From: an uncultured bacterium
Lineage (GTDB): Bacteria; Hydrothermota; UBA3073; NMUJ01; CBEVQO01
Assembly: GCA_965552055.1 (NCBI GenBank)
Contig: CBEVQO010000008.1
Span: 1 to 64,000 of the forward strand
Reading direction: 5' to 3'
DNA: 64,000 bases
The stretch's first letter is position 1; every line of letters begins with the position of its first letter. This document shows, one piece after another, positions 5,958 to 60,062 of the stretch. The translations under genes and the position numbers were made by a program. The notes beneath the pieces are model-generated. The model made no database searches. It was not told where the DNA came from and saw only the letters and a program-made list of their open reading frames with translations.

Positions 5958-5985
5958 TTGACTTCTCTGTTGTCCCAATTATAAT
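5958..5985 (+). promoter_or_regulatory. sigma70-like promoter TTGACT-N16-TATAAT
   Basis: Direct motif match upstream of 6001. Confidence 0.7.
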
Positions 5986-6000
5986 TTTAAAAAGGGGAAG

Positions 6001-6919
6001 ATGAAAAGAGTTTGGCTTATAATGACAATCTTATGGTTAGCGATAATAAATTGCAAGAAGATCAAAAAAGAAAATAACCCTCCGACCGCGCCTATTATTT
6101 CGGGACCGGATAGCATAAGTGTAGGTGAAAGCGTAACATTCACAGCGAGTGCAGAGGATCCGGATGGAGATAATGTAGCAATTAGATTTTCATGGGGAGA
6201 CGGTGACACATCCAATTGGAGTTCTTTTGTATCATCATGGCAATCTGTGTCAATGAGCCATATCTATACAGGCGCAGGTACTTATTATATAACAGCACAG
6301 GCTAAAGATACAAGGAATGCGCTTTCAAAATGGTCATCTTTCCATAAAATCAAAATAATAGGAAAGAATATTCCACCGAATGCACCAGTTGTTTCGGGTC
6401 CTAATGAGGCCGCAACAGACGAGTATATATACTTCACAGCAAGTGCCTTGGACCCTGATAGCGACAGTGTGGCAATCAGATTTGCATGGGGAGATGGAAA
6501 TACTACAAAATGGAGCGGTTATAGGAGTAACAATCGGAAATGGTAGAAATGATGGCAAACCAAGGGTTTATGCTACTTGTTTCCACGGAAGCGTTTATGA
6601 GTTTGAATGGACAGAATCAGGATGGCTAAAGGTAAAGATGGGACAAGCACCACTTTGGCCATATATGGCAACAGTAGGAAAAGACATAGTTATAGCTGAT
6701 GGAAGAGGCGATGGCAAATTAAGAGTATATGCTACTTGTGGCTATGGTGTAGGGATACATGAATTCGAATGGACAGGCTCATCTTGGATCAAAAAAGAAA
6801 TAGATTCTGGGCCCACTACTACAATATCAGCAGGTGATGCCAGAGGAGACGGCAAACCAAGAGTTTATGGGTGTTTTAGTATCTATATTTATGAATTGGA
6901 ATGGACAAACCAAAAATAA
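6001..6919 (+). pseudogene. PKD-domain lipoprotein with C-terminal GRxDGKPRVY...EFEWT repeats, broken near 6520
   Basis: 6001..6546: lipobox-like INCKK plus 1.5 PKD-like domains (IRFSWGDG); three repeats continue in another frame to 6919. Confidence 0.7.
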
Positions 6920-6984
6920 AAATAATTTTAAACAACACTTTTATATTTTATCGAAAAAATAATTGAAGATAAAGCGGAGGGAAG

Positions 6985-7290
6985 ATGAAAGTAGTTGATG
7001 TTAAAGAAATGAAAGTGTATCCACTTGAGGAAAAGCGAAAAAACATCTTTTATGAAGCAAATGAATTTAAAGCAAGAGTAGTAGAATTGCCTCCCGGAGG
7101 AGAAATACCGGAATGCAAAATGTCCGCTTATGTCATATTTTACGTTGTTAAAGGAACAGCAGAAATAACCGTTAACGGAGAAAAAGTGAATTTAAAGGAA
7201 GGACAATGCTTAATCACAGAGCCCACAACATTATCAATGAAAACAAAAGACGGCGTCAGAATAATGGGAATCATAATAATAAAGCACTAA
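6985..7290 (+). CDS. Cupin-domain protein
   Basis: ELPPGGEIP...FYVVKGTAEITVNGE...LKEGQ cupin pattern; SD GGAGGG. Confidence 0.8.
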   Translation: MKVVDVKEMKVYPLEEKRKNIFYEANEFKARVVELPPGGEIPECKMSAYVIFYVVKGTAEITVNGEKVNLKEGQCLITEPTTLSMKTKDGVRIMGIIIIKH

Positions 7291-8222
7291 AAACCAGCAA
7301 CTTTATAGAATTCGTCGATTTCGGCTGTAGCAACGCAAATCACTGTATCTGCACCACCATAATAGACATAAACTGTGCCATCTTTCAACACTGCACCACA
7401 GGTAAACACTACATTGGCAACATCACCCTGTGTCTCAAATTCTTTCTCGGGCTCTAAAATAGGTTCCGGATGCCTGTAAATTATTTTGCTCGGGTCATCC
7501 AAATCTGCAAAGAAAAATCCCAATCTATAAACCATATATCTATCAACCGCATGATAAATAATAAGCCAGCCATGTTCTGTTTTTATAGGTTGAGCACCAC
7601 CCCCTACTTTAAAATGCTCCCATTCATATTGAGGACTCAATAAGATATTTAAATTTTTCCAGTGAACCAAATCTTTTGAATAACAAATCCACATATGCGG
7701 GGGTATTCTTATGTACATCACATATTTATCACCAAATTTTTCAGGAAAAAGTATCCCATGTTTATTGTCAACTCCGAGAAAAGGATAATATCTTTTGCCC
7801 CAGCGCCAATTTTTCGATAGGAAATCTTCAACCTTTATTCTATTCATTGCAAGTTGAATTATTTCTTTTGGCTTTTCTGTTTTCATCCCCGGCCATATCC
7901 CATAAGCAGTATAAGTAAGGATAAGCTCATCTCCTATTTGCACGATTCTCGGGTCTTCACACCCAAATTTCTCCCAATCACCTTCAGGCTCATAAACAGG
8001 ATAGGGAAGGCGCTCATCTATTGTAAAGCCGTCTTTTGTAGACGCATAGCCCAAACGAGAAATCATACCTTTTTCCCTTCCATTCCTTGCCCTGTAAATT
8101 ATATGTATTTTATCATCAAGATAAATAGCTGCTGCATTGAATACAACATATTCTTCCCACTCATTTTGAGGATTCGGCTTCAATATAGGATTTCCCTCGT
8201 ATCTTTTTAATTTAAAGCCCAT
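7287..8222 (-). CDS. GH130-like glycosidase/phosphorylase
   Basis: NPILKP, VFNAAA, GCEDPRI, NVVFTCGAV, YYGGADT. Confidence 0.88.
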   Translation of the reverse strand: MGFKLKRYEGNPILKPNPQNEWEEYVVFNAAAIYLDDKIHIIYRARNGREKGMISRLGYASTKDGFTIDERLPYPVYEPEGDWEKFGCEDPRIVQIGDELILTYTAYGIWPGMKTEKPKEIIQLAMNRIKVEDFLSKNWRWGKRYYPFLGVDNKHGILFPEKFGDKYVMYIRIPPHMWICYSKDLVHWKNLNILLSPQYEWEHFKVGGGAQPIKTEHGWLIIYHAVDRYMVYRLGFFFADLDDPSKIIYRHPEPILEPEKEFETQGDVANVVFTCGAVLKDGTVYVYYGGADTVICVATAEIDEFYKVAGF

Positions 8223-8581
8223 TTCACCTCCTTTAGCTCAATCGCTGTTACTTTTTCCAATTTTCTTTCCACAGGATTTACCTTTAAACCAAGTATTTCA
8301 AGCGTTGTATAACCAATGACAGGAACTTCACTTTCTCCACCAATGGTAACATATATTTGTCTTTTTATCCCTTCTATTTCAATTTCGACAATATCAAGTT
8401 TTCGAGAAATTATTTTACCATCGCCGATTTTTACTTTGACTTCTTCTTTACCTTCTATCCCGAGTTTATCAGCCACATTTTTAGGAATTTTCGTAAATGT
8501 AGAACCTGTATCAACAATTGCTTCTACTTCTTCAACCTTATCATTTTTAAAAAATTTTGCTTTTACAAGCACTTCGCCCAT
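8207..8581 (-). CDS. Clan AA (retropepsin-like) aspartic protease
   Basis: AIVDTGST motif, IGYTTLEILGLKVNP; start overlaps guaA stop (TGATG). Confidence 0.85.
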   Translation of the reverse strand: MGEVLVKAKFFKNDKVEEVEAIVDTGSTFTKIPKNVADKLGIEGKEEVKVKIGDGKIISRKLDIVEIEIEGIKRQIYVTIGGESEVPVIGYTTLEILGLKVNPVERKLEKVTAIELKEVKWALN

Positions 8582-10080: not shown

Positions 10081-10460
10081 AAGTATTCTACAAACTCCTT
10101 TGGATAGTTTGAAAGGTCAAGTTTCTCTTCATCGGGAAGGGGTCTTATCCCCCACTCCTGCATAGTGAGTGCTCCTATCAAAACTTTAATCTCTTTTCCT
10201 TCTTCATCCTTTCCTAACTTTTCAATTACTCTGGCATGTGTATGAATGGGCAAACCTTCCACTTTGCAGATTAGAATACAACCTTTCTTTATGGTGTGAA
10301 CTTTCCCATCTAAAGTAACTTTTTCCTCATAAGGCATATCAAATGTTATGAGATTTTTAGCAACATCTGCAGTAACATAAGTATTTCTTGACCCCGTATC
10401 AAACAATGTCCAGTATTCTTTTCCGTTAATTACTATATTTGCTCTCACTCTGCCCATCAA
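10077..10460 (-). CDS. Retropepsin-like aspartic protease, tandem copy 2
   Basis: LFDTGS motif, [13 protein letters not shown]. Confidence 0.8.
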
Positions 10461-10834: not shown

Positions 10835-10839
10835 CATTT

Positions 10840-10866
10840 ATTATAACCGAAATTTCTTCCTGTCAA
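10840..10866 (-). promoter_or_regulatory. Promoter TTGACA-N15-TATAAT; -35 contains the rpe stop
   Basis: Direct motif match. Confidence 0.75.
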
Positions 10867-11501: not shown

Positions 11502-12013
11502 CACTCGAAATCCCAAGAATTTAAAATATCCATAATGTCTGTTAATTCCCCATAACTGGCATAAATCAAACTATAAATATATTCTTCACCCTCAACGGCA
11601 ATAATTATTTCGCGAGCCGAGGTCAAAGGATGATAAAATTTAACCCAGCACCAGCTTCTTCCCTTTGAATCTTTTACAATGCCTCTATCTTCTTCTCTTT
11701 CTCCTCGTTCCTCCGCTATCCCCTGATACATACCCAGCACCCAGTCAACAGTAAGTTTTTGCTTTTCATGAATATGTATAGGATAAATTAACAAAGTTAT
11801 GGCTTCTTTTATTTTTCCACTTTCATCAGGATTCAAAAAAGATGTCGCAAATATTTTTGCAGGAACAATCGTTTTTCCCATCGAGAAAAGGTCATAAATC
11901 GCCAGACTTTCAACCAGAACGGTATCCGCAAATTTTGTAAATCTAGCAGGAATTTCTATCTTATACTTTAAAACAGGATGGACAAAAATATTAATTATAA
12001 AAATTAGCGTCAT
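11501..12013 (-). CDS. Hypothetical protein, possibly a distant paralog of 43113..43631
   Basis: Start coupled (ATGA) to the upstream stop; hydrophobic N-terminus. Confidence 0.6.
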   Translation of the reverse strand: MTLIFIINIFVHPVLKYKIEIPARFTKFADTVLVESLAIYDLFSMGKTIVPAKIFATSFLNPDESGKIKEAITLLIYPIHIHEKQKLTVDWVLGMYQGIAEERGEREEDRGIVKDSKGRSWCWVKFYHPLTSAREIIIAVEGEEYIYSLIYASYGELTDIMDILNSWDFE

Positions 12014-15000
12014 CTCAATTTTATTATCTTTTTTACTTTCACAAATTTTTCTGTTCGCATTTTGCAGAAATAAACACCTGAAGGTAATTCTTTTTGCCAT
12101 TTTATACTATAATATCCGGGTTCGTGATATTTATTAATCAGCACATTCACACATCTTCCTACAACATCGTAAATTTCTATTTTGACTCTGCATCTCGTTG
12201 GCACTTGATATTTTATCAACATGAAATTAGAGAAAGGATTCGGTTTGCATGTAAAATCAAATATTTTTGGCATCTTTTCTTCGATAAGAATAGGTTTTCC
12301 TTTCCCTTTCAACCTCACGCTTAAAGTTTCTTCGTCCGGATCATTACTAACTATAATCATTTCACTTATAAATTCACCTGTATCTGGCGGTGAAAATCTT
12401 ATTGTAAATTTTGCAGTATCATGTGGCATCACAGTATCGCAGATATTAAGTAACTTAAACGCCGATGTGTCTGCAATATTTACATCATAAATCACAAGAA
12501 ATGTATTACCTTTATTTAAAATTTTCAGTGTCCAATCTTTATAACTTCCTACGGTAACATTTCCATAATCATACGCTGTATCTTTGACAAAAATATCTGG
12601 AATTATACCATATCCTTTAATTTTAACCTCTTTCACAGGTTCTGCTGGGTCGTTGGAAATCAATTGTAAAATCGCTTCTTTTTTCCCTGTGTCTACAGGT
12701 GTAAAGTATAAAAGCACAAATGAAGAATCAAAAGGCATTATTGTATCAGGTAATGTTGATTCGAAATCAAAGGAAACAGTATCACTTAATAAAATATTTT
12801 TAATGATTAAATTTTCGTTTCCCTTATTATAAATCCAGAGATAAGATAATTTGGCACTATCAACCCACACTTTACCAAAATCTAAAAGTGTATCTGTGAA
12901 AATTCTCGCACCTTTCACATATGCTCTTAAATGAACATATCTCACAGATTCATCCGGGTCTTTTGAATAAATCTTTAATGTACAAGTGAAAGCGCCTGTA
13001 TCCTTTGGCACAAATTGAATGTGTATAAACATGATATCACCAACACCGATAGCTTGTGGAAAAACAGAAGGAGATATAACTGTATAATCTTTCGAAGTGA
13101 ATTTAACGCTATCTATTACAAGATAAGCATTACCTTTATTGCCAATATAGAAATACCATTTCGCCGTATCAAGCAGTGAAACCTGTCCAAAATCATGGAA
13201 AGTATCGGACAATTCAATATCCCCTGCAATGCCTCTACCATAAAGATTAATTTTGCGTTCAGGGTTATACGGGTCGTTTGAATAAATCTTTAAAGTGTCA
13301 AAAACTTTTCCTGTATCTTTTGGCGCAAAAGCAACAATAAGATTCTCACTATCTGATGGTAAAATCAAAGAAGGGAAATCAACAACAAAGAAAATAGAAG
13401 TTCGCAAAATTGCACTATCAATTACAAGAGTATCATTCCCATCATTATAAAGCCACATCTTCCATGTAGCAGTATCCCCTATCCACACATCGCCATAATT
13501 ATGTGAGCTGTCTGATAAAGTAATGTGTGAGCCAATTCCTCTTCCTTTTGCATAAGCGTACACCACAGGTTCATCAGGGTCATTCGAGTAAATGCTTAAA
13601 ATGCAATGAACTACTCCCGTTTCAGAAGGCGTAAATCCAACAAGGACATTAATGCTGTTATTAGGTGAAATCGTTTGCGGAAAAGATGGAGATAGGATGA
13701 GAAATGCATTATGACTTGAAATAATGCTATCAACGATAAGATCTGTATTACCTTCATTTTTAATCCAAAGCCACTGCCAGTAAGCAGTATCAGTAATTTG
13801 TACATCACCAAAATCATAAGATGCAGAAAGCAAAGCAATATCTGGTATTATCCCCCTACCTGTCAATTTAACGCTTAAAACAGGTTCATCGGGGTCATTC
13901 GAGAAAATCTTCAGAAAATCACTCACAGTTCCCGTATCATTTGGTATAAACAAAATATCTACGCTATCACTATCATGCGGTGTAATTTTTGAAGGAAAAA
14001 TAGTCAAATTAAATATAGGCTCTTTTAATACCAAACTATCAATTATTAAAGTATCATTTCCTTTGTTGTAAATCCACAAATATTTCCAGCAAGCAGTATC
14101 ATTCACCCAAACATTCCCAAAATTATAAGCAGTATCACTTAACTCAATATCGGGTATTATGCCCCTTCCTTGCAGATAAACTGTGCAAACAGGCTCGTCA
14201 GGGTCATTTGAAAATACTTTTAAAAATCCTGTAAATATACCTGTATCCTGGGGTACGAAACTTATGCAAATGCTATCACTGTCTCCGGGAAGAATATAAG
14301 TTAAAGACCCGCTTATAGCAAAAGTAGGATAATTTGTAGAAATTACACTATCAATAAGTAAAGTATCATTTCCTTTGTTGTATATCCACAAAATTTCCCA
14401 TGCAGTATCATTCACCCAGACATTTTCAAAATTATAAAAGGTATCACTTAATTCAATATCAGGTATTACGCCCCTTCCTGACAGGTAAATATAAAACACA
14501 GATTCATCCGGGTCATCGGAGTATATTTTCAAAGTGTCAAAAAGCCATCCGGTATCGGCTGGAATAAACTTGACAATTAAGGAAATACTATCTCCTGATT
14601 TCACAAGTTGCGGAGTAACGATATCTATCACAAATTCACTTTTATTATTTCTGGTAGAATCTATTCTTAAGTTTGCTATCCCAATGCCTGTATTTTTAAT
14701 GTAAAATGTATGTTCTACTGTATCTCCTATCCAGATATTTCCAAAGTTGCATGCTGTATCCGTTGAAATATCAGGAATTCCTTTGTAAATTATTCTAAAG
14801 GTGTCAAAAGTATCAACATTTGCTATTATTTTTACGATATCCCATGCGGTATCGACCCTTATTCTTTGAAAGATGTCATCGATTCTTATAGTATCTGACC
14901 CCTTGGTTTCACAGAGATATGCTTTTCCTTCGTATATTCCTGAATTTGTATCCGTTTCAATTAATCCGACGGCGATTCCTGTGGGATAAATCTTCCGTGA

Positions 15001-16380
15001 TTTAAGGATAACAATCGCAGCTTCGCGAATATCTGTATTTCTATCTTTTCCGTAAACCCTGATATAAAGTGTATCTGGTGAATAAAGGATATTAACCGTG
15101 TTAGCGTAATTTTTGTCGTAGTTTCTTACTGAATCTACCGAAATTGGCTCACCTGGTACACCTGGTATAAAATCGTTTTTCCATGGAGTATGTATATTTG
15201 GACCTGCAATTTTTGCAGATATCTCAGCATCAGTAGTATCCCACCAGAAATTGTTTTGTAAGTTAAATATAGCGTTACTTTTATTATTAATTTCATTATC
15301 GCCTTGCAAAGTATTATAATATAAATTTGAATAATTTAACACAATAGAATCAACAACAGTATCAACGTATACTCCTCCCGAAGAATCATTAAGTAAATTT
15401 CCATTATCAATAATAAGACAACTATCCATAATTAAAAATGCTGGAGACCCACCGCTAAAGGAAATACCACCACCAACTGTATCGCTTATGTTTAAGGATA
15501 TAACACATCTCCTTATTTTAACCTGCGAGGAACCGCCAACAAATATTCCAGCACCTGCTTCTTGTACAATATTATGTGCAATTGCGCATTTTTCTATGAC
15601 TGGAGCAGCATTAAAAGCAGTTGCGCCTCTACCTATCCGAATTCCTCCCCCTCTTCGACTTTTATTGTTAAGAATCAAATTGCCTACTATGTAAGGAGAA
15701 GAACCATCCACTACTATCCCTCCTCCACCCCATGAAATACCTTTTGCAATATTATCATAAATTTCATTTTCCTTTAAAATAAGATTACTATTATTATAAA
15801 TATAAATACCTCCTCCTCCAGAATTTGCTATATTATAACGAATAACATTTTTCGTAATAACACAAGAGGAAGAAAGTGCAAATATGCCGGCGCCATGCCC
15901 TTCCGAAAAGTTATTTTCTATGACATTATCTTCAATTACCACTGTGGATGCATATAAAAAAATTCCCGCTCCCCAAGTGCCCCATTTGCCCCACACGAGA
16001 GGACCTTTTGCATGTCCATCTCTAATAGTAAAACCTTTAATCAAAGCTACATCTGTAACATTGCTACAGAAAATTACATGCCATGAAGTGTCCTTGCCAT
16101 CATTTGACACAGCAGTTAATGTACAATTAGCAGCCCCTCCTTCGCTTATTAAATGAACTGAATCTCTCATTCTTAAACCCATCGTATCCGGGAAAAACAA
16201 ATGATATGTCCCATTCTTTACTAAAACAGTGTCAATTCTTCCAAATGCTACTGCTGAATCATGTGCTATATTGATATATTTTTGAAGTGAATCACCTTCG
16301 GCACCGCTGGTGTCAACCACCCATACTTTGCCATAGATTGTACCCCACGCAAAAACCAATACAAATAAACATTTTCTCAT
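12010..16380 (-). CDS. Large secreted protein: beta-helix (pectin-lyase-like) domain, 8 Ig-like ASH/choice-of-anchor D repeats, T9SS-like CTD
   Basis: Signal peptide; GGGI/N-rich beta-helix; 8 S(N/D/K)DP repeats; C-terminal PNPF...YDVVGR...LPSGVYF...KIIKLR. Confidence 0.88.
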   Translation of the reverse strand: MRKCLFVLVFAWGTIYGKVWVVDTSGAEGDSLQKYINIAHDSAVAFGRIDTVLVKNGTYHLFFPDTMGLRMRDSVHLISEGGAANCTLTAVSNDGKDTSWHVIFCSNVTDVALIKGFTIRDGHAKGPLVWGKWGTWGAGIFLYASTVVIEDNVIENNFSEGHGAGIFALSSSCVITKNVIRYNIANSGGGGIYIYNNSNLILKENEIYDNIAKGISWGGGGIVVDGSSPYIVGNLILNNKSRRGGGIRIGRGATAFNAAPVIEKCAIAHNIVQEAGAGIFVGGSSQVKIRRCVISLNISDTVGGGISFSGGSPAFLIMDSCLIIDNGNLLNDSSGGVYVDTVVDSIVLNYSNLYYNTLQGDNEINNKSNAIFNLQNNFWWDTTDAEISAKIAGPNIHTPWKNDFIPGVPGEPISVDSVRNYDKNYANTVNILYSPDTLYIRVYGKDRNTDIREAAIVILKSRKIYPTGIAVGLIETDTNSGIYEGKAYLCETKGSDTIRIDDIFQRIRVDTAWDIVKIIANVDTFDTFRIIYKGIPDISTDTACNFGNIWIGDTVEHTFYIKNTGIGIANLRIDSTRNNKSEFVIDIVTPQLVKSGDSISLIVKFIPADTGWLFDTLKIYSDDPDESVFYIYLSGRGVIPDIELSDTFYNFENVWVNDTAWEILWIYNKGNDTLLIDSVISTNYPTFAISGSLTYILPGDSDSICISFVPQDTGIFTGFLKVFSNDPDEPVCTVYLQGRGIIPDIELSDTAYNFGNVWVNDTACWKYLWIYNKGNDTLIIDSLVLKEPIFNLTIFPSKITPHDSDSVDILFIPNDTGTVSDFLKIFSNDPDEPVLSVKLTGRGIIPDIALLSASYDFGDVQITDTAYWQWLWIKNEGNTDLIVDSIISSHNAFLILSPSFPQTISPNNSINVLVGFTPSETGVVHCILSIYSNDPDEPVVYAYAKGRGIGSHITLSDSSHNYGDVWIGDTATWKMWLYNDGNDTLVIDSAILRTSIFFVVDFPSLILPSDSENLIVAFAPKDTGKVFDTLKIYSNDPYNPERKINLYGRGIAGDIELSDTFHDFGQVSLLDTAKWYFYIGNKGNAYLVIDSVKFTSKDYTVISPSVFPQAIGVGDIMFIHIQFVPKDTGAFTCTLKIYSKDPDESVRYVHLRAYVKGARIFTDTLLDFGKVWVDSAKLSYLWIYNKGNENLIIKNILLSDTVSFDFESTLPDTIMPFDSSFVLLYFTPVDTGKKEAILQLISNDPAEPVKEVKIKGYGIIPDIFVKDTAYDYGNVTVGSYKDWTLKILNKGNTFLVIYDVNIADTSAFKLLNICDTVMPHDTAKFTIRFSPPDTGEFISEMIIVSNDPDEETLSVRLKGKGKPILIEEKMPKIFDFTCKPNPFSNFMLIKYQVPTRCRVKIEIYDVVGRCVNVLINKYHEPGYYSIKWQKELPSGVYFCKMRTEKFVKVKKIIKLR

Positions 16381-16404
16381 ACACCCCTCCCTTACTTTTT
16401 ATTA

Positions 16405-16431
16405 ATTTTAATTGTGATGTAAAAGTGTCAA
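16405..16431 (-). promoter_or_regulatory. Promoter TTGACA-N15-TAAAAT
   Basis: Direct motif match; SD GGAGGGG downstream. Confidence 0.75.
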
Positions 16432-16445
16432 CAAAAATTTGGTTT

Positions 16446-22490: not shown

Positions 22491-22565
22491 ATTCTAATCA
22501 TTTTTCAATTTTGTCAATCAATTTTTAGCATATTCCCATTGACAAATCCAAAATACAGTTATAAT
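22491..22565. promoter_or_regulatory. Divergent promoter pair: minus TTGACA-N15-TAGAAT (22517..22491), plus TTGACA-N15-TATAAT (22539..22565)
   Basis: Direct motif matches. Confidence 0.75.
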
Positions 22566-22585: not shown

Positions 22586-26454
<3,869 letters not shown>

Positions 26455-27132: not shown

Positions 27133-28331
27133 TGCATCTTCTAATCCTTTCCCTGGCGATTCTCCTCGCACTATATATGGCTTGGAATATTGGAGCGAAT
27201 GATGTTGCAAATTCCATGTCAACTGCTGTTGGCACACATGCAATAACTTTGCGTCAGGCACTCGTAATCGCTGCTGTACTCGATACTGTTGGTGCTGTTT
27301 TCGTTGGCTCACATGTTGTTGAAACGATGAGAAAAGGGATAATAAATCCTGCGAATATTGAGGCGTATAAAATAATGCTTGGCTTTTTATCGTCTTTACT
27401 TGCTGCGAGTATATGGGTTACTGTTGCTACATGGAGGGAGATGCCTGTATCCACCACCCATTCTGTTGTTGGCGCTATAATGGGATTTGGGCTTGTTGCA
27501 GGCGGTGTTCATATCGTTAACTGGAAGAAAGTTTTGCAAATCGTTTTGAGCTGGGTTATCTCTCCTGTTTTCGCAATTTTCCTTGCATTTTGCATCTTTC
27601 AAATTGTAAGAAAATTTGTGCTTGAGAAGAAAAATCCTGTAGAAAGTGCTTTAAAGTTCTCTCCTTATATTTCGGGGATTACTTTTTTCATATTCACTCT
27701 TGCTATATTTTTCAAGACACCACTTGGCAAGCGCCTTGGTGATACAAAATTTACCTTTTTGATATCCGGGATTGTTGGCTTTATATCGGGTGTGATTGGC
27801 TATTTTGTGATGAGAAGGATTGCTTTGAGGGGCGATGATGTTGAAGAGTTCTTTCGTCGCCTTCAGGTTCTCACGAGCTGTTATATTGCTTTTTCACATG
27901 GTGCAAACGATGTTGCGAACGCAGTTTCACCACTTGCAGGTGTTTTGATGATTTTAAAAACAGGCAAACTCGGTTTAAAAGCCGAAGTCCCTTTATATAT
28001 TTTGCTAATAGGGGGATTGGGGATAGCAATTGGCATTATCACCTGGGGCTACAAAGTTATAAGGACGATTGCCTTTAAGATAACACATTTGAGTAATTCT
28101 CGTGCTTTCTGCATTGATTTCAGTGCAGCATCAACTGTTTTACTTGCATCAAAACTTGGTTTACCTGTTTCCACCACGCATGCATGCGTTGGTGCAGTTA
28201 TAGGTATTGGGCTTGTGAGGGGGATAGAGGCGCTCAACTTACGGGTTATACGCCAGATAATTTATGCGTGGCTGATAACACTTCCTGTTTCCGCTCTTTT
28301 GAGTGCTCTTATATTTAAATTAATTACTTGA
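27132..28331 (+). CDS. PiT-family inorganic phosphate transporter
   Basis: Two GANDVAN motifs and two PVSTTH motifs. Confidence 0.95.
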   Translation: MHLLILSLAILLALYMAWNIGANDVANSMSTAVGTHAITLRQALVIAAVLDTVGAVFVGSHVVETMRKGIINPANIEAYKIMLGFLSSLLAASIWVTVATWREMPVSTTHSVVGAIMGFGLVAGGVHIVNWKKVLQIVLSWVISPVFAIFLAFCIFQIVRKFVLEKKNPVESALKFSPYISGITFFIFTLAIFFKTPLGKRLGDTKFTFLISGIVGFISGVIGYFVMRRIALRGDDVEEFFRRLQVLTSCYIAFSHGANDVANAVSPLAGVLMILKTGKLGLKAEVPLYILLIGGLGIAIGIITWGYKVIRTIAFKITHLSNSRAFCIDFSAASTVLLASKLGLPVSTTHACVGAVIGIGLVRGIEALNLRVIRQIIYAWLITLPVSALLSALIFKLIT

Positions 28332-28354
28332 CAATGATAAATTTTGAATATAAT
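28328..28354 (+). promoter_or_regulatory. tRNA promoter TTGACA-N15-TATAAT; -35 contains the PiT stop
   Basis: Direct motif match. Confidence 0.8.
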
Positions 28355-28361: not shown

Positions 28362-28436
28362 GCGGGCATAGCTCAGGGGTAGAGCACCAGCTTCCCAAGC
28401 TGGGGGTCGCGGGTTCGAATCCCGTTGCCCGCTCCA
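28362..28436 (+). tRNA. tRNA-Gly (anticodon CCC), CCA encoded
   Basis: Acceptor stem GCGGGCA/TGCCCGC, anticodon arm CCAGC-TTCCCAA-GCTGG, GGTTCGAATCC T-arm. Confidence 0.97.
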
Positions 28437-33150: not shown

Positions 33151-33177
33151 TTGACAAATAAAGAAATCCATTAAAAT
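33151..33177 (+). promoter_or_regulatory. Promoter TTGACA-N15-TAAAAT, 6 nt before ATG
   Basis: Direct motif match. Confidence 0.78.
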
Positions 33178-33859: not shown

Positions 33860-33886
33860 TTGACGCACTCATATCATCATTATAAT
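33860..33886 (+). promoter_or_regulatory. Promoter TTGACG-N15-TATAAT
   Basis: Direct motif match. Confidence 0.7.
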
Positions 33887-37406: not shown

Positions 37407-37434
37407 TTGACATAAATCGAAAATCAGATATAAT
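37407..37434 (+). promoter_or_regulatory. Promoter TTGACA-N16-TATAAT, 4 nt before GTG
   Basis: Direct motif match. Confidence 0.72.
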
Positions 37435-38218: not shown

Positions 38219-38245
38219 TTGACACTAAAATATTTTGATTAAATT
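38219..38245 (+). promoter_or_regulatory. Promoter TTGACA-N15-TAAATT, 5 nt before ATG
   Basis: Direct motif match. Confidence 0.7.
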
Positions 38246-38986: not shown

Positions 38987-39013
38987 TTGACATTTCCTTA
39001 TTTATCATAAAAT
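38987..39013 (+). promoter_or_regulatory. Promoter TTGACA-N15-TAAAAT, 5 nt before purE ATG
   Basis: Direct motif match. Confidence 0.78.
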
Positions 39014-41790: not shown

Positions 41791-42750
41791 ATGTTTGAAA
41801 AAATTATAAAAAATAAAATCTGGGGTATTGCCTTTTTACTTTTAATAATAGCGTGTAAAAAGGAAGAAAAAAGGACAAAACTCATGGAAATGCTAAAATT
41901 AATCCCAGCCGAAATGAAAATAGTAGAGGGGACAGAGACAAGTTATTATAAGATAGAAGAGTTTTATTTTATAGACTATGAGCCAATAGAGACGTTGTTC
42001 AAAGATGTTTACGATGAATCTCTTGCTTTTGTACGAAAGGCAGGTATTAGTACTGAATTACCTGAGGAGATTTTTATCCTCAAAATAGAAGGAAATAATT
42101 CAAAGATTGAAAAAAATCTGCAACGACAAGGTTTTAAATTACTAAAGAAATATAAAGGTGCTAAAGTATGGTTCTCTCCGGGAGAGTATGAAGATGCTTA
42201 TTGTGCTATAGTCGACGACAAATTTATTTTTGTAGAGAGATATCCACAAGTAATTTATAAATGTATTGATCTTATAAAAGGCAAAGGTAAGAGTGCAGCG
42301 GATATACCGCGAATTAGAGAAGAAATAACGGAACTCTTGAACGATGTGCCAGTAAGTCCTATAATAGTAAATTTAGAGAAAAATGAGAAAATTGCGTATT
42401 GGATGGAAGAAAAAGGTAAAGTTAAATTTAAGCAGATTTATGAATACAATACAGTTAGTGAGCCCTCGATGGTGGTTCGAATATGGGAAAAAATAAAAGA
42501 AAAGGAAGACAAATTAGGAGCAATTGACTCAATAACAAACGGAATAGTTGCAAATTTAAGAAAACACGGCTATACATTTTCTGCGATTTATGATACAATT
42601 CATACTATTATTTCTATCTTATGGCCACTAGAGCGTTTATTAGAGAAAGGAGCGACTATTATTTCACTTACACAGGATGGAAAATTTTTATCAATGATAG
42701 GAGAAATAGAAGTTACTGAATTCAAAAAACTTTTATTTTATCGATTTTGA
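41791..42750 (+). CDS. Hypothetical lipoprotein
   Basis: SD GGAGGGGG; IIACKK lipobox. Confidence 0.75.
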   Translation: MFEKIIKNKIWGIAFLLLIIACKKEEKRTKLMEMLKLIPAEMKIVEGTETSYYKIEEFYFIDYEPIETLFKDVYDESLAFVRKAGISTELPEEIFILKIEGNNSKIEKNLQRQGFKLLKKYKGAKVWFSPGEYEDAYCAIVDDKFIFVERYPQVIYKCIDLIKGKGKSAADIPRIREEITELLNDVPVSPIIVNLEKNEKIAYWMEEKGKVKFKQIYEYNTVSEPSMVVRIWEKIKEKEDKLGAIDSITNGIVANLRKHGYTFSAIYDTIHTIISILWPLERLLEKGATIISLTQDGKFLSMIGEIEVTEFKKLLFYRF

Positions 42751-42768
42751 CAATAAAAAGGAGGTAGT

Positions 42769-43079
42769 ATGATTTACTTATATATTAACTATCCGGAGCC
42801 ACATTTTACAATACATACGAATACATGTTGTGAAGAGATACGAAAACGACAAAAATCGGGCCAGCGCATTCTAAAAATAGGTCATCATAATTTAGCCATT
42901 GAATTGCTGAAATTTGACCAAGAGTACCAATTCGAGTCGACGCCGCCTAAAATGATATGTGGGTCGAGATAGATTTAGGAAACACTACTCAAGAAATATG
43001 TATTTCGCTTGCTATTAAACATCTATTAGCACAACGAGTTGAGCGTTTTCGAAAAGCTGAAATAAAAATTCATTGTTGA
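42769..43079 (+). pseudogene. Small hypothetical gene frameshifted near 42950
   Basis: MIYLYINYPEPHFTIH... continues in another frame as NDMWVEIDLG...KIHC*. Confidence 0.6.
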
Positions 43080-43102
43080 CAATCCGGTAATTACTTTAAA
43101 AT
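43076..43102 (+). promoter_or_regulatory. Promoter TTGACA-N15-TAAAAT
   Basis: Direct motif match. Confidence 0.72.
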
Positions 43103-43856: not shown

Positions 43857-44096
43857 TTATAAATATTTAAATGCATCTTTGTATTTTTTGCCGAAAAGGC
43901 GTATCATTAAATCCTTTTGTGCCTCCTCAATGGATGAGAAAAGATAAACACCTGATTTATACGGATTTTTTATAAATTTTTCGCTATGACGAGCCATTTC
44001 GAGTGCTAATTTTATTACATCTTCTCTTTTCATTTTATAAAATTCCTTATACATGTCAATGCGCGCTAACAAAAATGAGTCAAAAAACTTAATCAT
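43857..44096 (-). CDS. Small hypothetical partner of the nucleotidyltransferase
   Basis: Overlaps the upstream gene end; YKSGVYLFSSIEEAQ. Confidence 0.65.
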   Translation of the reverse strand: MIKFFDSFLLARIDMYKEFYKMKREDVIKLALEMARHSEKFIKNPYKSGVYLFSSIEEAQKDLMIRLFGKKYKDAFKYL

Positions 44097-44572: not shown

Positions 44573-44628
44573 ATTATAATTAACATTTTTAATTTGTCAA
44601 CTTGACATTTGGGGATTTTGACTAAAAA
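44573..44628. promoter_or_regulatory. Back-to-back divergent promoters around TGTCAA-C-TTGACA (minus N16-TATAAT; plus N15-TAAAAA)
   Basis: Direct motif matches; start codons lie 4-5 nt from each -10. Confidence 0.72.
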
Positions 44629-44633: not shown

Positions 44634-45059
44634 ATGGAGATAATTCTTGTGAGTGCGTGTATTATGGGATTGAAGACAAGGTATGATGGTGAGGAATCAA
44701 AAGTAAAGTTTAATCCGCCTGCTGATTGCATTCCCATCCCGATTTGTCCAGAGCAGATGGGAGGACTGCCTACTCCCCGTCCAAAGATGACCCTGCTAAA
44801 CAGAGCAGAAGAAATTTTGAAAGGCAAAGGTAAAGCGATAAATACAGAAGGAAAAGATGTAACCCAAAATTTAATAAGAGGAGCAGAAGAAGTTTTGAAA
44901 ATAGCAAAGATGTTAAACATTAAAAAAGCGATTTTGAAAGACGGAAGTCCTTCGTGCGGTGTCATGCATACAAATATAAATTGGGAAAGAGTCAAAGGAA
45001 AAGGCATCACAGCATTACTCCTTGAAAAAAACGGAATAAAAATAGAAACTATTGGTTGA
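44634..45059 (+). CDS. DUF523-family (2-thiouracil desulfurase-like) protein
   Basis: ILVSAC..G..RYDG, CPEQMGGLPTPR, LKDGSPSCG. Confidence 0.92.
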   Translation: MEIILVSACIMGLKTRYDGEESKVKFNPPADCIPIPICPEQMGGLPTPRPKMTLLNRAEEILKGKGKAINTEGKDVTQNLIRGAEEVLKIAKMLNIKKAILKDGSPSCGVMHTNINWERVKGKGITALLLEKNGIKIETIG

Positions 45060-45082
45060 CAAAGGAAAAACTTCGTTAAAAT
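45056..45082 (+). promoter_or_regulatory. Promoter TTGACA-N15-TAAAAT; -35 contains the DUF523 stop
   Basis: Direct motif match; GTG 6 nt after -10. Confidence 0.78.
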
Positions 45083-48087: not shown

Positions 48088-48093
48088 CTTACT

Positions 48094-48120
48094 ATTTTAA
48101 TTACTTTATGGAAAAGTCAA
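48094..48120 (-). promoter_or_regulatory. Promoter TTGACT-N15-TAAAAT, 6 nt before nnr ATG
   Basis: Direct motif match; -35 contains the upstream TGA. Confidence 0.78.
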
Positions 48121-48707: not shown

Positions 48708-48722
48708 TATTTCTTTTTTTGG

Positions 48723-49606: not shown

Positions 49607-49634
49607 ATTCTAATTATTTTTCTTTATTTGTCAA
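49607..49634 (-). promoter_or_regulatory. Promoter TTGACA-N16-TAGAAT upstream of folE2
   Basis: Direct motif match. Confidence 0.6.
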
Positions 49635-52897: not shown

Positions 52898-52914
52898 AAT
52901 CCCTCCTGACTTTT

Positions 52915-52941
52915 ATTATAACCCAATATTATCATTGTCAA
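52915..52941 (-). promoter_or_regulatory. Promoter TTGACA-N15-TATAAT
   Basis: Direct motif match; SD GGAGGG downstream. Confidence 0.78.
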
Positions 52942-52964
52942 GTGATAAAAAATTTTTTAATAAT

Positions 52965-53031
52965 TTTTAATGCGAGCGTAAGCGAGCATGTTACATATGG
53001 GCTGTAGGGTGGCGGGGACAGGGGGCGGACA
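52965..53031 (+). repeat. Dispersed GC-rich element, copy 3 (short)
   Basis: TTTTAATGCGAGCGTAAGCGAGC..TTACATATGGGCTGTAGG..GGCGGGGACAGGGGGCG. Confidence 0.8.
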
Positions 53032-53144
53032 AAAATTTTCTTGACATATTCATTATGTGATTATTTAAAAAGAAGGGGCTATGTGTAAGTTAATTTCGGG
53101 GTGTGATTTTCTTGAAACATAACAACCTCAAAGGGCAAGATATT

Positions 53145-54128: not shown

Positions 54129-54129
54129 A

Positions 54130-55827: not shown

Positions 55828-57833
55828 AAACTAAATTCTTCGATTTCTTCATACTCTTCGAGTTTCCATTCTGGTATTTTATGGAGATCGCAATATCTTT
55901 TTGGTTCTGTTCCTTTTATGAAATATTCTCTCCTTTTCCTCGGACAATTTTCAGTAGCTAGCAATCCGCTATCAAGGCATATCACCCTTTCTACAATTCC
56001 TGAAGGTGGTTTAAAATTTTTTACAGGTTTGCCTGCTTCTGCCCTTTTCATAAACTCAGCCCAGATAGGTGCTGCGAATCTGCCACCCGTTGCACCGCGC
56101 ACAATTGTCTTCGGCTTATCAAACCCAACCCATACTCCACAAACATAATAAGGAGTAAAGCCGATAAACCATGCATCGGTATAATCATCTGTGGTGCCTG
56201 TCTTACCTGCACAGGGTCTTAAAAACCCCTTACGCCGTATAGAACGAGCAGTACCATATTTCACAACACTCTGCATCATGCTTTGCATCAAAAAAGCAAC
56301 TTGGGGCGTTAAAACACGGTCCCTAACGGGCTCCGATTTGTAGATGATATTACCATTTCTATCAACGATTTTTAAAATATAAATGGGTTTCACTCTATAT
56401 CCTCCGTTCGCAAAAGCACAATAAGCTGTCACCATATCAAGCAAAGTAACGCAATTTGAACCAAGTGCAAGAGAAATAACAGGCAATAATTTGTGCTCTA
56501 TTCCCATATTTTCTGCAAGGTCAACTACTTTTTCTGGTGAAAATTTCATAATCAGCCTGACGGATACTAAATTGCGAGAATATGCTAAAGCATCTCTCAA
56601 AGTAATTCTTCCTAAAAATCTTCTATCATAATTCATCGGTGAATAAATAGTATCTCCTGCATCTACAACGATTGGTGCATCGAGCACCATTGTACCCGGT
56701 GTATAACCATTTTGTAAAGCAACAGCCCATACAAAAGGTTTAAAAGCAGAACCTGGCTGTCTCAATGCCTGAGTAGCACGGTTAAACATGCTCTCCCTGA
56801 AATCCCTTCCTCCTACCATCGCGAGTATCTCTCCTGTCCTTGGATTCATACAAAGCAAAGCACACTGCAAAGGTTCGCCTTTTTCCTCTCTCACCATATA
56901 AAATTTCTTCAACCTCTTTAACTCTCTTTTGACAACACTCTCTGCAATTTTTTGCAATCGAGAAGACAAAGTTGTATAAATTTTTGCACCACTTGTATAA
57001 AGAAATTCTTCGCCATATTCTCTTATCAAAATTTTTTTGACTTCTTCCACAAAATAAGGTCCAATTCCTGTTGTCTTTTTCTTCTTTTTCAATCCCAAAG
57101 GCGCATTTTTTGCGTATTCTGCTATATTTCTCGCAATTATACCCTTTTTTGCAAGCAAATCCAGAACTTTTGCCCTCATCTCAACTGCTTTCACAGGGTT
57201 AACAAACGGATTATAAGAAGAAGGAGCTCTCGGCAAACTTGCAAGTAAAGCACATTCTGGTAATGTTAAATCTTTTACATGTTTACCAAAATATTTTTCT
57301 GCTGCTGCTTCCACACCATATGCTCCCTGACCAAAATAAATGTTTGTAAGATACATCTCAAGGATTTCGTCTTTTGAAAATACTCTCTCAATTTTGACAG
57401 CAAGAATTGCTTCTTTTAATTTTCTAATCCATGTTCTTTCCATTGAAAGAAATAAATTCCTTGCCAGCTGCTGAGTTATAGTACTTGCACCTTGTACTAC
57501 TCTTCCAGCTCTTAAATTTGTAAGAAAAGCACGAGCAACACCGAAAATATCAATACCCCAATGTTTGTAAAACCTTTTATCTTCTTTTAAAATTATCGCT
57601 TTCTTCAAATATTCAGGTACTTCTGTAAGTTCCACAGGCTTTCTGCGTTGCCCCTGAAATTCATAGATAACATTTCCATCGCGATCAAGTATAACCGCAG
57701 GAATTGGAGGTTTATATTCTTTTAACCTTGAAATCGAAGGCAGAGTTTTATTAAGAGAGTAAATTACTCCAAATCCCAATCCAAAGATTGTTCCCCATAT
57801 TCCGCAACATATTAAAAAAGCTTTTCTCCACAT
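55824..57833 (-). CDS. Class A penicillin-binding protein (PBP1A family)
   Basis: EDKRF, GASTITQQL, GSAFKP, SRN, GKTGTT; second ATG is 6 nt after -10. Confidence 0.93.
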   Translation of the reverse strand: MWRKAFLICCGIWGTIFGLGFGVIYSLNKTLPSISRLKEYKPPIPAVILDRDGNVIYEFQGQRRKPVELTEVPEYLKKAIILKEDKRFYKHWGIDIFGVARAFLTNLRAGRVVQGASTITQQLARNLFLSMERTWIRKLKEAILAVKIERVFSKDEILEMYLTNIYFGQGAYGVEAAAEKYFGKHVKDLTLPECALLASLPRAPSSYNPFVNPVKAVEMRAKVLDLLAKKGIIARNIAEYAKNAPLGLKKKKKTTGIGPYFVEEVKKILIREYGEEFLYTSGAKIYTTLSSRLQKIAESVVKRELKRLKKFYMVREEKGEPLQCALLCMNPRTGEILAMVGGRDFRESMFNRATQALRQPGSAFKPFVWAVALQNGYTPGTMVLDAPIVVDAGDTIYSPMNYDRRFLGRITLRDALAYSRNLVSVRLIMKFSPEKVVDLAENMGIEHKLLPVISLALGSNCVTLLDMVTAYCAFANGGYRVKPIYILKIVDRNGNIIYKSEPVRDRVLTPQVAFLMQSMMQSVVKYGTARSIRRKGFLRPCAGKTGTTDDYTDAWFIGFTPYYVCGVWVGFDKPKTIVRGATGGRFAAPIWAEFMKRAEAGKPVKNFKPPSGIVERVICLDSGLLATENCPRKRREYFIKGTEPKRYCDLHKIPEWKLEEYEEIEEFSF

Positions 57834-57839
57834 CTTCAT

Positions 57840-57866
57840 ATTTTATTCTAAAAAGAAAAAAGTCAA
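57840..57866 (-). promoter_or_regulatory. Promoter TTGACT-N15-TAAAAT
   Basis: Direct motif match. Confidence 0.75.
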
Positions 57867-57875
57867 GCAAATAAT

Positions 57876-57896
57876 AAAAAAGCCCCCTGAGGGGGC
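57876..57896 (-). terminator. Intrinsic terminator-like hairpin
   Basis: Minus strand GCCCCC-TCA-GGGGGC followed by TTTTTT. Confidence 0.65.
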
Positions 57897-57982
57897 GGAA
57901 GGGGGAAGGGGCCTGTGCCTCTTATCTTATAACCAAATTCGTGTCAAAAGCCCTTGACTTTCCCATATTTTGACAATATTTA

Positions 57983-58963
57983 ATGATGGAAATAACAAAT
58001 CCAATACGGCAGGTAGGCGACGAAACGATAGAGAAAACCCTAAGACCACAAAAACTGGAAGATTTTGTAAATCAAGAGAGAATAAAAGAAATATTGAAAA
58101 TATCAATTGAATCCGCGAAAAAAAGGGGAGCTTCTCTCGACCACATTTTGCTTTATGGACCACCGGGTCTCGGTAAAACAACCCTTGCTCACATAATCGC
58201 AAAGGAAATGGGCAAAAAAATAATTGCAACTTCAGGACCCGCACTCGAGAAAAAGGTAGATCTGGTAGGAATACTAACAAAGTTAGAAGACGGAGATATT
58301 TTATTCATTGACGAAATCCACAGATTATCAAAACCTTTAGAAGAATACCTTTATCCAGCGATGGAAGATTTCAAAGTCGATGTAATAATAGAACCGGGTC
58401 CAAATGCAAAGACAATAAAATTGAATTTGAATAAATTTACATTGATAGGAGCAACAACAAGAACAGGTCTATTATCTTCTCCATTTAAGTCAAGATTTGA
58501 ATTTGAATTCCGTTTAACTTACTATCGACCTGAACATCTCAAAAAAATTATATTGAGGTCGGCAAAAATACTCGGAATAGACATTGATGAAGAAGCCGCT
58601 TTTGAGATAGCAAAAAGGTCTCGTGGCACTCCCCGTATAGCAAACAGATTACTGAAAAGAGCAAGAGATATGGCATTGTATATGTCAGAAAAAAAGATAA
58701 CAAAAAAAGTTGCAAAAGAAATGCTCGATAAACTGGGAATTGACGAAAACGGTCTTTGTGAACTCGACAGGAAAATACTGGAGACAATTGTAAAAAAATA
58801 TGCAGGTGGACCTGTTGGCTTAAAAACGATATCAGCTTCTGTGGGAGAAGACCCGGGAACAATTGAGGCAGATTTTGAACCTTACTTATTACAGGAAGGT
58901 TATATACAGAGAACCCAAAGAGGAAGAAAAGCAACTCAAAAAGCTTTTAATCTTTTTAGATGA
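57983..58963 (+). CDS. ruvB: Holliday junction branch migration helicase RuvB
   Basis: LRP, GPPGLGKTT, FIDEIHRL, RGTPRIANRLL. Confidence 0.97.
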   Translation: MMEITNPIRQVGDETIEKTLRPQKLEDFVNQERIKEILKISIESAKKRGASLDHILLYGPPGLGKTTLAHIIAKEMGKKIIATSGPALEKKVDLVGILTKLEDGDILFIDEIHRLSKPLEEYLYPAMEDFKVDVIIEPGPNAKTIKLNLNKFTLIGATTRTGLLSSPFKSRFEFEFRLTYYRPEHLKKIILRSAKILGIDIDEEAAFEIAKRSRGTPRIANRLLKRARDMALYMSEKKITKKVAKEMLDKLGIDENGLCELDRKILETIVKKYAGGPVGLKTISASVGEDPGTIEADFEPYLLQEGYIQRTQRGRKATQKAFNLFR

Positions 58964-60039
58964 AAATAATATCTGTAATCGGAGCAAGACCACAGTTTAT
59001 AAAACTAGCACCAATTTATAAAGAGATTAAAAAATATGATAAAATAGAACATAAAGTTTTGCATACAGGTCAGCATTACGATTTTAATATGTCTGACATT
59101 TTCTTTTTTGAACTGGATTTAAAGGCAGATTATAATCTTGGGATAGGTTCTGGCACTCATTCTGAGCAAACAGGCAGGATGCTTATAGAAATAGAGAAAG
59201 TTTTGATGGAAGAAAAGCCCGACCTTGTAATGGTTTATGGTGATACGAATTCCACGCTCGCAGGAGCTCTTGCAGCCGCAAAACTGCATATACCCGTGGC
59301 ACATGTAGAAGCAGGGGTCAGAAGTTTTAATATGAAAATGCCAGAAGAAATAAATAGATTACTTACAGACAGAATCTCAAAAATTTTATTTTGCCCCACA
59401 AAAACAGCGGTAAAAAATCTGAAAAAAGAAGGTCATAAAAGGGGAATTCATTTTGTAGGTGATGTGATGCTCGATATACTTTTGAACTCGAAAAATAAAA
59501 TCGAAGAAAAATATAAAGAAGTGCTTCAAAAATTCAAATTAGAGGAAAAAAATTTTTGTGTCGCTACGATACATCGTCAGGAAAATACAGATGATAAGAA
59601 TAGATTAAAAGAAATTTTTTCCGCATTATCAGAAATTGGTAAAAAAATAAAAGTTTTGATTCCTTTGCATCCAAGGACAAAAAAGAGATTAAAAGAATTC
59701 AATTTGAATCCCCAAAATATTGAAATAATTGAACCTGTATCTTATTTTGAAATGTTGTGCCTGCAAAAGGGAGCAAAAATTGTTCTCACGGATTCCGGTG
59801 GAATGCAAAAAGAGTCCGCATTCTTAAAAACTCCATGCTTAACATTGAGAGAAGAAACAGAATGGATAGAAACCATAACATCGGGATGGAACATCCTCGC
59901 AGGAAAAATAAAAAAAGAAGTAATCCTGGAGAAATTTGAAAAAATATTAATCTCAAAATCTAAAAAGGAAATTTACAAACAATTTGGTGCAGGCAAAGCA
60001 ACAAAAAATATCGTTAAAATTTTAAATTCTTTTGCTTGA
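58960..60039 (+). CDS. wecB: UDP-GlcNAc 2-epimerase (non-hydrolysing)
   Basis: GARPQFIK, HTGQHYD, GDTNST, HVEAG, TDSGG. Confidence 0.95.
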   Translation: MKIISVIGARPQFIKLAPIYKEIKKYDKIEHKVLHTGQHYDFNMSDIFFFELDLKADYNLGIGSGTHSEQTGRMLIEIEKVLMEEKPDLVMVYGDTNSTLAGALAAAKLHIPVAHVEAGVRSFNMKMPEEINRLLTDRISKILFCPTKTAVKNLKKEGHKRGIHFVGDVMLDILLNSKNKIEEKYKEVLQKFKLEEKNFCVATIHRQENTDDKNRLKEIFSALSEIGKKIKVLIPLHPRTKKRLKEFNLNPQNIEIIEPVSYFEMLCLQKGAKIVLTDSGGMQKESAFLKTPCLTLREETEWIETITSGWNILAGKIKKEVILEKFEKILISKSKKEIYKQFGAGKATKNIVKILNSFA

Positions 60040-60062
60040 CTTTTTAGGGGATACGATAAAAT
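60036..60062 (+). promoter_or_regulatory. Promoter TTGACT-N15-TAAAAT; -35 contains the wecB stop
   Basis: Direct motif match; GTG 5 nt after -10. Confidence 0.78.

Follow-up and report, generated by a model that had tools for sequence, protein, structure and literature searches.

The promoters in a 64-kb stretch of DNA from an uncultured bacterium of the WOR-3 phylum (contig CBEVQO010000008.1, positions 1 to 64,000, called the window below) carry consensus sigma70 hexamers, but the spacer that separates the -35 hexamer from the -10 hexamer is 15 bp long in most of them. In the genome that carries the window (2.23 Mb in 15 contigs, approximately 36% GC, designated G000) this spacing was confirmed genome-wide, including the rRNA, tRNA and core housekeeping genes. 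On balance, we consider it probable that these promoters are read by a holoenzyme in which a short sigma70 of 265 amino acids, and not RpoD, serves as the housekeeping sigma factor. Such a hand-over between sigma factors would perhaps have been helped by a change in the beta' zipper.

When the whole genome was searched for TTGACA-Nk-TANAAT, 261 matches were found at k=15, 49 at k=16 and 21 at k=17. With TATAAT as the -10 box, the 1818 TTGACA sites yielded 121 matches at 15 bp, 27 at 16 bp, 7 at 17 bp and 0 to 7 at the other values of k between 10 and 24. The peak appeared only with TTGACA/T, and five non-consensus -35 hexamers used as controls gave flat spacer profiles. If one mismatch was allowed, 323 of the 344 matches at 15 bp were non-coding, as against 17 of 35 at 17 bp. 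A 15-bp promoter preceded 214 of the 368 divergently transcribed genes (7.5 in shuffled sequences). Both sites upstream of the 16S rRNA gene fit the 15-bp register (the second one also has TATAAT at 18), and promoters were detectable for 21 of the 47 tRNA and tmRNA genes, 20 of them fitting 15 bp. An earlier note on the window, with counts made by eye, had proposed the 15-bp rule and had named a genome-wide mode of 17 bp as the outcome that would speak against it; the mode was 15 bp. In their hexamers, in the A/T tract and frequent C immediately upstream of the -35 box, and in their location before rRNA, tRNA and core genes, the G000 promoters resemble canonical sigma70/SigA promoters. They differ from these in their spacer, whose mode of 15 bp, with 17 bp near background, lies outside 17 ± 1. 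In L320, an independent assembly, the 10 kb compared were 99.1% identical and contained no 15-bp site.

In the window, sites were counted as TTGAC(A/T/G)-Nk-TANAAT, and 100 order-3 Markov simulations served as background. There were 16 matches at k=15, 5 at k=16, 1 at k=17, 2 at k=18 and 1 at k=20. At k=15 the simulated sequences gave 0.37 matches on average and never more than 3. The sole 17-bp match (49865, minus strand) lies inside an open reading frame (ORF). All 22 sites listed in the earlier note were recovered at the positions given there, and its four 16-bp sites (5958+, 37407+, 44600-, 49634-) were correct. Among the 18 sites described there as 15-bp promoters, 16 have a TANAAT box, whereas two have weaker -10 boxes (TAAATT at 38219+ and TAAAAA at 44602+). 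The list was incomplete, as 42747+ (15 bp, TATGAT) and 44059- (16 bp) had been missed. The assignment of promoters to ligA, to V-ATPase subunit B and to a tRNA-Gly gene proved right. Of three sites reported as not fitting, two have TATTTA (53041+) and AATATT (57954+) in the 15-bp register, and 60968+ is ambiguous. The sites and the tRNA gene are as follows (the number between the hexamers is the spacer length in bp).

10840..10866, minus strand, promoter TTGACA-15-TATAAT
16405..16431, minus strand, promoter TTGACA-15-TAAAAT, before a 1456-aa ORF
22491..22517, minus strand, promoter TTGACA-15-TAGAAT, before V-ATPase subunit B
22539..22565, plus strand, promoter TTGACA-15-TATAAT, divergent partner of the preceding one
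26393..26419, minus strand, ligA promoter TTGACA-15-TAAAAT
26428..26454, plus strand, promoter TTGACT-15-TAAAAT, ATG 6 nt past the -10 box, likely leaderless
28328..28354, plus strand, tRNA-Gly promoter TTGACA-15-TATAAT, tRNA start 7 nt past the -10 box
28362..28436, plus strand, tRNA-Gly(CCC) gene, whose 5' end bounds the start site
33151..33177, plus strand, promoter TTGACA-15-TAAAAT, ATG 6 nt past the -10 box
33860..33886, plus strand, promoter TTGACG-15-TATAAT
38219..38245, plus strand, promoter TTGACA-15-TAAATT (the weaker -10 box), ATG 5 nt past it
38987..39013, plus strand, promoter TTGACA-15-TAAAAT, ATG 5 nt past the -10 box
42747..42773, plus strand, promoter TTGACA-15-TATGAT, absent from the earlier list
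43076..43102, plus strand, promoter TTGACA-15-TAAAAT
44602..44628, plus strand, promoter TTGACA-15-TAAAAA (last -10 position not T), ATG 5 nt past it, back-to-back with 44600-
45056..45082, plus strand, promoter TTGACA-15-TAAAAT
48094..48120, minus strand, promoter TTGACT-15-TAAAAT, before an NAD(P)HX epimerase/dehydratase gene, ATG 6 nt past the -10 box
52915..52941, minus strand, promoter TTGACA-15-TATAAT, before an HdrA-like gene
53041..53067, plus strand, reported misfit TTGACA-15-TATTTA, before a glycerol-3-phosphate dehydrogenase gene
57840..57866, minus strand, promoter TTGACT-15-TAAAAT, before a PBP1A gene
60036..60062, plus strand, promoter TTGACT-15-TAAAAT, GTG 5 nt past the -10 box
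5958..5985, plus strand, promoter TTGACT-16-TATAAT
37407..37434, plus strand, promoter TTGACA-16-TATAAT
44032..44059, minus strand, site TTGACA-16-TAAAAT, absent from the earlier list
44573..44600, minus strand, promoter TTGACA-16-TATAAT
49607..49634, minus strand, promoter TTGACA-16-TAGAAT

Three divergent pairs (44573-44628, 22491-22565 and 26393-26454) stand back-to-back, and the -35 boxes at 44600 and 44602 are one base apart.

The short spacer would be spurious if the boxes were read in the wrong register, with the true -10 box 2 bp further downstream, or if they were not promoters at all but a repeat or an assembly artefact. We regard this as hardly credible. A TAnnnT in the 17-bp register was found at 77 of 748 non-coding TTGACA sites, and 29 of the 368 divergent genes had a 17-bp match, compared with 7 in shuffles; 64 of these 77 sites, however, have TA also in the 15-bp register. 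The profile of 586 non-coding TTGAC(A/T) sites upstream of ORFs, aligned on the -35 box with no -10 box assumed, showed T in 83% at position 16, A in 80% at position 17 and T in 71% at position 21, as a 15-bp spacer requires. At the positions appropriate for a 17-bp spacer the values were 39, 71 and 40%, thus the register shifted by 2 bp, which the earlier note had itself named as a possible refutation, carries no -10 signature. Fitting a mixture by expectation-maximization (EM) assigned 75% of the G000 sites to 15 bp, 8% to 16 bp and 0.1% to 17 bp, with 14% having no box; in the fitted -10 matrix the first T, the A and the last T reached 96, 97 and 86%, respectively. As a proxy for the transcription start, the distance from the box to the ORF start was 5, 6 and 7 nt at 87, 33 and 15 of 272 sites, and 5' ends of tRNAs were found from 6 nt past the box. 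A -10 box 2 bp downstream would thus not fit in, as start codons are most frequent at 5 nt and tRNA 5' ends begin at 6 nt. The start-codon distances suggest that many mRNAs are leaderless. Where an ATG lies 5 nt past the -10 box, it is preceded by G in 73 of 84 cases. An artefact is further contradicted by the spacer sequences, which differ between sites, and by the clean 17-bp peaks that identical counting gave in relatives; the counting method therefore detects canonical spacing.

The nearest named matches of the RpoD and of the short sigma of G000 were WOR-3 proteins. The relatives were surveyed with the exact pattern TTGACA-Nk-TANAAT (k=15 to 18) in 151 genomes of the WOR-3 phylum, G000 and 150 others, none of the latter having more than 17 sites at k=15. 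The counts at 15/16/17/18 bp were 2/7/258/2 and 0/2/30/1 in the 17-mode genomes G065 and G020, and 6/249/21/2 and 4/260/30/3 in the 16-mode genomes G017 and G066. Other profiles were 5/100/45/12 (G050), 17/17/6/4 (G008) and 2/7/26/47 (G083, mode 18). The mode was specific to families, being sharply 16 in f17, f24 and f27, sharply 17 in f4 and f12, and 17/18 in f29, to which G083 (at 18) belongs. The RpoC tree, a quick one with 47 genomes, requires 6 changes between the three spacer modes. Three genomes of the same order as G000, namely G070, G001 and G152 (87, 99 and 66% complete), contain few consensus sites. With TTGAC(A/T) the counts at 15/16/17 bp were 14/2/0 of 28, 9/4/3 of 32 and 8/2/0 of 14, respectively. 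EM fitting of G001 (368 kb, only 49 sites) placed 50% at 15 bp, 29% at 16 bp and none at 17 bp. In promoters that are orthologous between G001 and G070, indels of a single base change the spacer from 15 to 16 bp or the reverse. Only the short-sigma tree joined G000 with the same-order genomes (support 88); one Bacteroidales sigma in this tree sits on a long branch between groups.

The position of the missing bases was sought in the spacer sequences. The 17-mode genome G065 (29 sites) has a canonical TRTG extended -10 element, with T at -5 in 79%, T at -3 in 82% and G at -2 in 68% (counted from the -10 box). This element is gone in G017 (61 sites) and in G000 (272 sites), where a T-purine step is found at -4/-3, with T in 80 and 55% and G in 37 and 49%, respectively. 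G occurs in 49% at -3 and 18% at -2 in G000, versus 6 and 68% in G065, so that in G000 the G of the TG step stands three bases before the -10 box and not two, as in the canonical extended -10 promoter. From these profiles we infer that one base pair was lost on the -10 side of the T-purine step in both G000 and G017, and, in G000, a second one on the -35 side. Contacts of the beta' zipper and of sigma3.0 with this region are reported in PMC3173786 and PMC5101437.

A covariation scan of the polymerase subunits was performed with G088 omitted for having too few matches, and with G083 scored as 17 in spite of its mode of 18. Among the RpoC columns, the one ranked highest for short spacers was a zipper position four residues ahead of the Tyr of the zipper, where Glu is replaced by Asp (r -0.67, with 4 changes along the tree). 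Asp was present in 9 of 47 genomes, all having a mean spacer of at most 16.2, and in 0 of the 21 genomes scored 17. A replacement of the conserved zipper Arg by Lys was found in G000 alone. A zipper Pro-to-Ala replacement looked predictive within the class and was rejected, as it is frequent in 17-mode genomes. The beta-flap was free of indels in 48 RpoB sequences, except for a one-residue insertion in two 17-mode genomes. In G001 and G070, rpoB and rpoC are on separate contigs.

G000 encodes RpoD (575 aa), the short sigma70, FliA and ECF-sized (extracytoplasmic function) sigmas. The short sigma, which is present across the class, has no PF03979 (region 1.1) among its listed domains. It retains the pair of tryptophans with the glutamine after it, and also the helix of region 4.2. 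It scored below the RpoS cut-off (TIGR02394, 205.1 vs 378.7 bits). Counted from the tryptophans up to the 4.2 helix, the distance is 148 residues in the short sigma of G000 and 149 in those of the same-order genomes, compared with 150-152, mostly 151, in 47 RpoDs; relative to SigA structures, three residues are missing between regions 2.4 and 4.2 in the G000 protein. Comparison of its gene with that of a 96%-identical relative gave a dN/dS of approximately 0.011 (11 non-synonymous and 105 synonymous changes), which indicates strong purifying selection on the short sigma. A consensus 15-bp promoter is located two genes upstream of it. The RpoD of G000 misses its curated cut-off (TIGR02393, 284.8 vs 354 bits). 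One residue is deleted from its sigma3.0 helix, region 3.2 carries two insertions of one residue each, and of the 84 well-conserved columns in regions 2-4 it breaks 14 (rank 4 of 48). RpoC and RpoB break 9 of 179 and 4 of 87 conserved columns, both in the usual range; as judged from these alignments, RpoD is selectively eroded in G000.

In the same-order genomes G001, G070 and G152, searches for sigma factors did not find RpoD, and returned the short sigma as the only group-1/2 sigma, together with one small ECF-sized sigma. Of 18 loci tested in the class, 17 have dnaG sequence next to rpoD, whereas in G001 and G070 dnaG is directly followed by an unrelated gene. The short sigma is therefore the only candidate for reading the TTGACA-15/16-TANAAT promoters of these three genomes. 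The genome G126 had looked like a counter-example, with the short sigma only and 17-bp spacers, and was dropped, dnaG being also missing from the assembly.

If the short sigma has taken over from RpoD, the events could be pictured as follows. Boxes of the form TTGACA/TAwAAT, 15 bp apart, precede most transcription units, those of rRNA and tRNA included, and many of the mRNAs would be leaderless. The housekeeping reader would be the short sigma, whose shortened sigma3-sigma4 linker may hold sigma4 on the beta-flap about 2 bp nearer to sigma2. Of the two base pairs, one would be missing from the interval that separates the -10 box from the T-purine step near the beta' zipper, in step with the loss of the sigma3.0 glutamate for the extended -10 and with the zipper Glu-to-Asp replacement. 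The second would be missing from the interval that separates the T-purine step from the -35 box, in step with the shorter linker. The earlier note had supposed an altered holoenzyme geometry, located in the sigma3-sigma4 linker or in the beta-flap. Its 15-bp rule and the housekeeping scope of the rule were borne out and an altered geometry may well accompany them, but the G000 flap has no indel, and the linker is shortened in the short sigma and not in RpoD, where the region 2.4-4.2 span is one residue longer than usual. The length of the RpoD linker was rejected as a ruler, since it is 150-152 in all spacer modes.

A number of observations weigh against the hand-over to the short sigma, and some of them are what would be expected if RpoD had remained the housekeeping sigma and had itself been remodelled for 15 bp by the sigma3.0 deletion, the region 3.2 insertions and a changed 2.4/3.0 surface, the same-order family having shortened its spacers separately. 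We think this remodelling unlikely. In its favour, rpoD of G000 is intact at its position after dnaG, and the protein retains region 1.1 (PF03979 is listed), the tryptophan pair and a normal 4.2 helix. The indels of this RpoD are unique among 48 WOR-3 RpoDs and fall between the two DNA-binding domains. A second promoter class, which a demoted RpoD might serve, was not found in a 6-mer scan of 122 regions, and sigma28-like patterns were flat. Families f17 and f24 peak sharply at 16 bp with an RpoD of normal length, and the 16-mode genomes G003, G036, G010 and G091 gave RpoD only; spacers can therefore shift without a sigma swap. The hand-over itself is further weakened by the RpoDs of G121, G011 and G025, which are more eroded than that of G000 in genomes whose mode is 16. 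The shortened form of the short sigma is class-wide, occurring also in 16- and 17-mode genomes. In the same-order family the peak is less sharp than in G000, as the EM fit of G001 showed, and the quick RpoC tree did not resolve how this family and G000 are related. A close relative of the G000 RpoD was sought for dN/dS comparison, and only a copy identical at 574 of 575 positions was found. Remodelling of RpoD is made less attractive by the same-order genomes, which favour 15 bp with RpoD not found, by the scatter of the RpoD changes over conserved columns, as under relaxed selection, and by its 2.4-4.2 span, longer rather than shorter. In G121 and G011 region 1.1 was not found in the strongly eroded RpoD, and the short sigma is well conserved in these two genomes and in G025. 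The combination of an eroded RpoD with a conserved short sigma suggests further hand-overs in WOR-3.

The zipper part of the proposed mechanism is also weakened, because only 3 independent pairs bear on the association, without significance (sign test, p 0.5), and because several RpoB columns correlate with the spacer as well as the zipper or better. The same small number of pairs counts against the view that the ruler is the core enzyme (the beta' zipper, the zinc-binding domain or the posture of the flap) and that either sigma would read 15 bp with it. Such a ruler would fit the rank of the Glu-to-Asp column and the Arg-to-Lys replacement in G000, which affects a residue reported to contact spacer DNA (PMC3173786); it would also fit the T-purine step being 1 bp nearer to the -10 box in G000 and G017, both with Asp. 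However, flap and zipper are without indel, the zipper change is conservative, and many 16-mode genomes keep Glu. We therefore hold the core enzyme to be an improbable ruler.

A further possibility is that DNA topology, and not a protein, sets the spacer, a relaxed or positively supercoiled chromosome bringing 15-bp promoters into phase. G000 has reverse gyrase, and its amino-acid composition gives an estimate of about 69 °C; for these two reasons a thermophilic organism is suggested. The GyrA of G000 (C1:27242-29584, plus strand) scored below the gyrA cut-off, with the lowest score among full-length matches. The GyrA box has a role in negative supercoiling. A GyrA-box-like segment is absent from the G000 protein and is kept in G001, G070, G050 and G015, and the G000 enzyme may be a non-supercoiling type IIA topoisomerase. 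According to PMC9303308, a change of about 0.06 in supercoiling is equivalent to one spacer base, with relaxation favouring short spacers, which would suit a topological cause. Against it, reverse gyrase is present also in the 17-/18-mode genomes G020, G006, G068, G124, G122, G058 and G078, and G020 (99% complete), with reverse gyrase and no gyrA match, is a clear 17-mode genome. Conversely, the GyrA box is kept in G001 and G070, which favour 15/16 bp, and in the families peaking sharply at 16 gyrA was present with no match to reverse gyrase. On account of G020 and of the GyrA box in the same-order genomes, supercoiling was rejected as a general cause, and as the explanation for G000 it seems very improbable; topology may sharpen the 15-bp peak in G000.

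More widely we suggest, tentatively, that the -35/-10 ruler of bacterial polymerases is not tied to 17 bp and was reset several times in WOR-3, with new values of 15, 16 and 18, and that in one case the reset came about when a paralogue with a short linker took over from RpoD. G000 could then be in the middle of the switch, its RpoD eroding, and a few residues in sigma3, the linker and the zipper might be enough to shift the optimum by entire base pairs. If so, such cells would largely ignore foreign promoters with 17-bp spacers. The mismatch could act as a barrier to phages and transferred genes, and the 15-bp holoenzyme could conceivably be used as an orthogonal expression system. The 15-bp lineage, standing beside relatives at 16, at 17 and leaning to 18, forms a natural series in which an old structural question, that of what in the holoenzyme measures the spacer, could be addressed by swaps.

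Different sigma factors are known to use different spacings with one core enzyme, and the alternative sigma70 factors sigma28, sigma32 and SigB have spacings other than 17 bp. Those factors recognize other hexamers and serve small regulons, unlike the consensus housekeeping boxes found here across the genome. Bacteroidota are placed in the same superphylum as WOR-3. The dominant motif in G000 is TTGACA/TAwAAT, and not the TTTG/TANNTTTG at -33/-7 by which a promoter of the Bacteroidota short sigma would be recognized. [quoted passage not shown] For the replacement of RpoD by a short sigma, Bacteroidota are the nearest precedent, with the difference that they changed the boxes (-33/-7, TTTG/TANNTTTG), whereas here the boxes are canonical and the distance is changed (PMC6847099). 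The rRNA promoters of E. coli, which have a suboptimal 16-bp spacer and a downstream-shifted start (PMC5101437), are similar in combining a short spacer with consensus boxes. They are a regulatory exception to the 17-bp optimum, while in G000 15 bp is the rule and the start proxies lie at or inside the usual distance of about 6-7 nt past the -10 box.

The 17-bp spacer has been treated as fixed across bacteria, and G000 contradicts this stated near-invariant. A spacer of 17 bp was reported as predominant across 49 species (10.1101/2025.01.23.634641), and a spacer series for Mycobacterium sigmas gave a 17-bp optimum for sigma-H (10.1101/534826). A domain-wide study, in which the median was 17 for each of the genomes tested and 99.2% of spacers fell within 16-18, concluded that the spacer holds domain-wide (10.64898/2026.09.23.753901). 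Its scan admits only 16-18 bp and is therefore blind to the G000 promoters; its text does not mention WOR-3. The earlier note had taken the architecture to be undescribed, and no description of a 15-bp housekeeping mode was found in the literature searched, which most subscription papers lay outside.

Some promoters of G000 deserve separate mention. Five related ones contain 10-11 consecutive T within the spacer (C4:232434+, C12:10415-, C12:1408-, C2:30524- and C2:17590-, with spacers of 17, 17, 17, 16 and 13 bp, respectively), and four of them precede secreted-looking ORFs; these promoters are candidates for slippage switches, captured outside the 15-bp register. Six others (C2:13686+, C3:55162-, C5 near 118000+, C7:29437+, C9:28375+ and C10:26328+) share the same 10-11 bases just past the -10 box, and an Rfam scan of five of these downstream stretches gave no credible match. 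At C1:379337+, C6:20570+, C1:281212- and C1:340322-, a promoter is followed by a boxA-like stretch and, about 30 nt past the promoter, by a CRISPR-type repeat array; the arrays themselves were seen at three sites. In the window, the 1456-aa ORF (12010-16380, minus strand) has matches to choice-of-anchor D and OS_HP2-family proteins.

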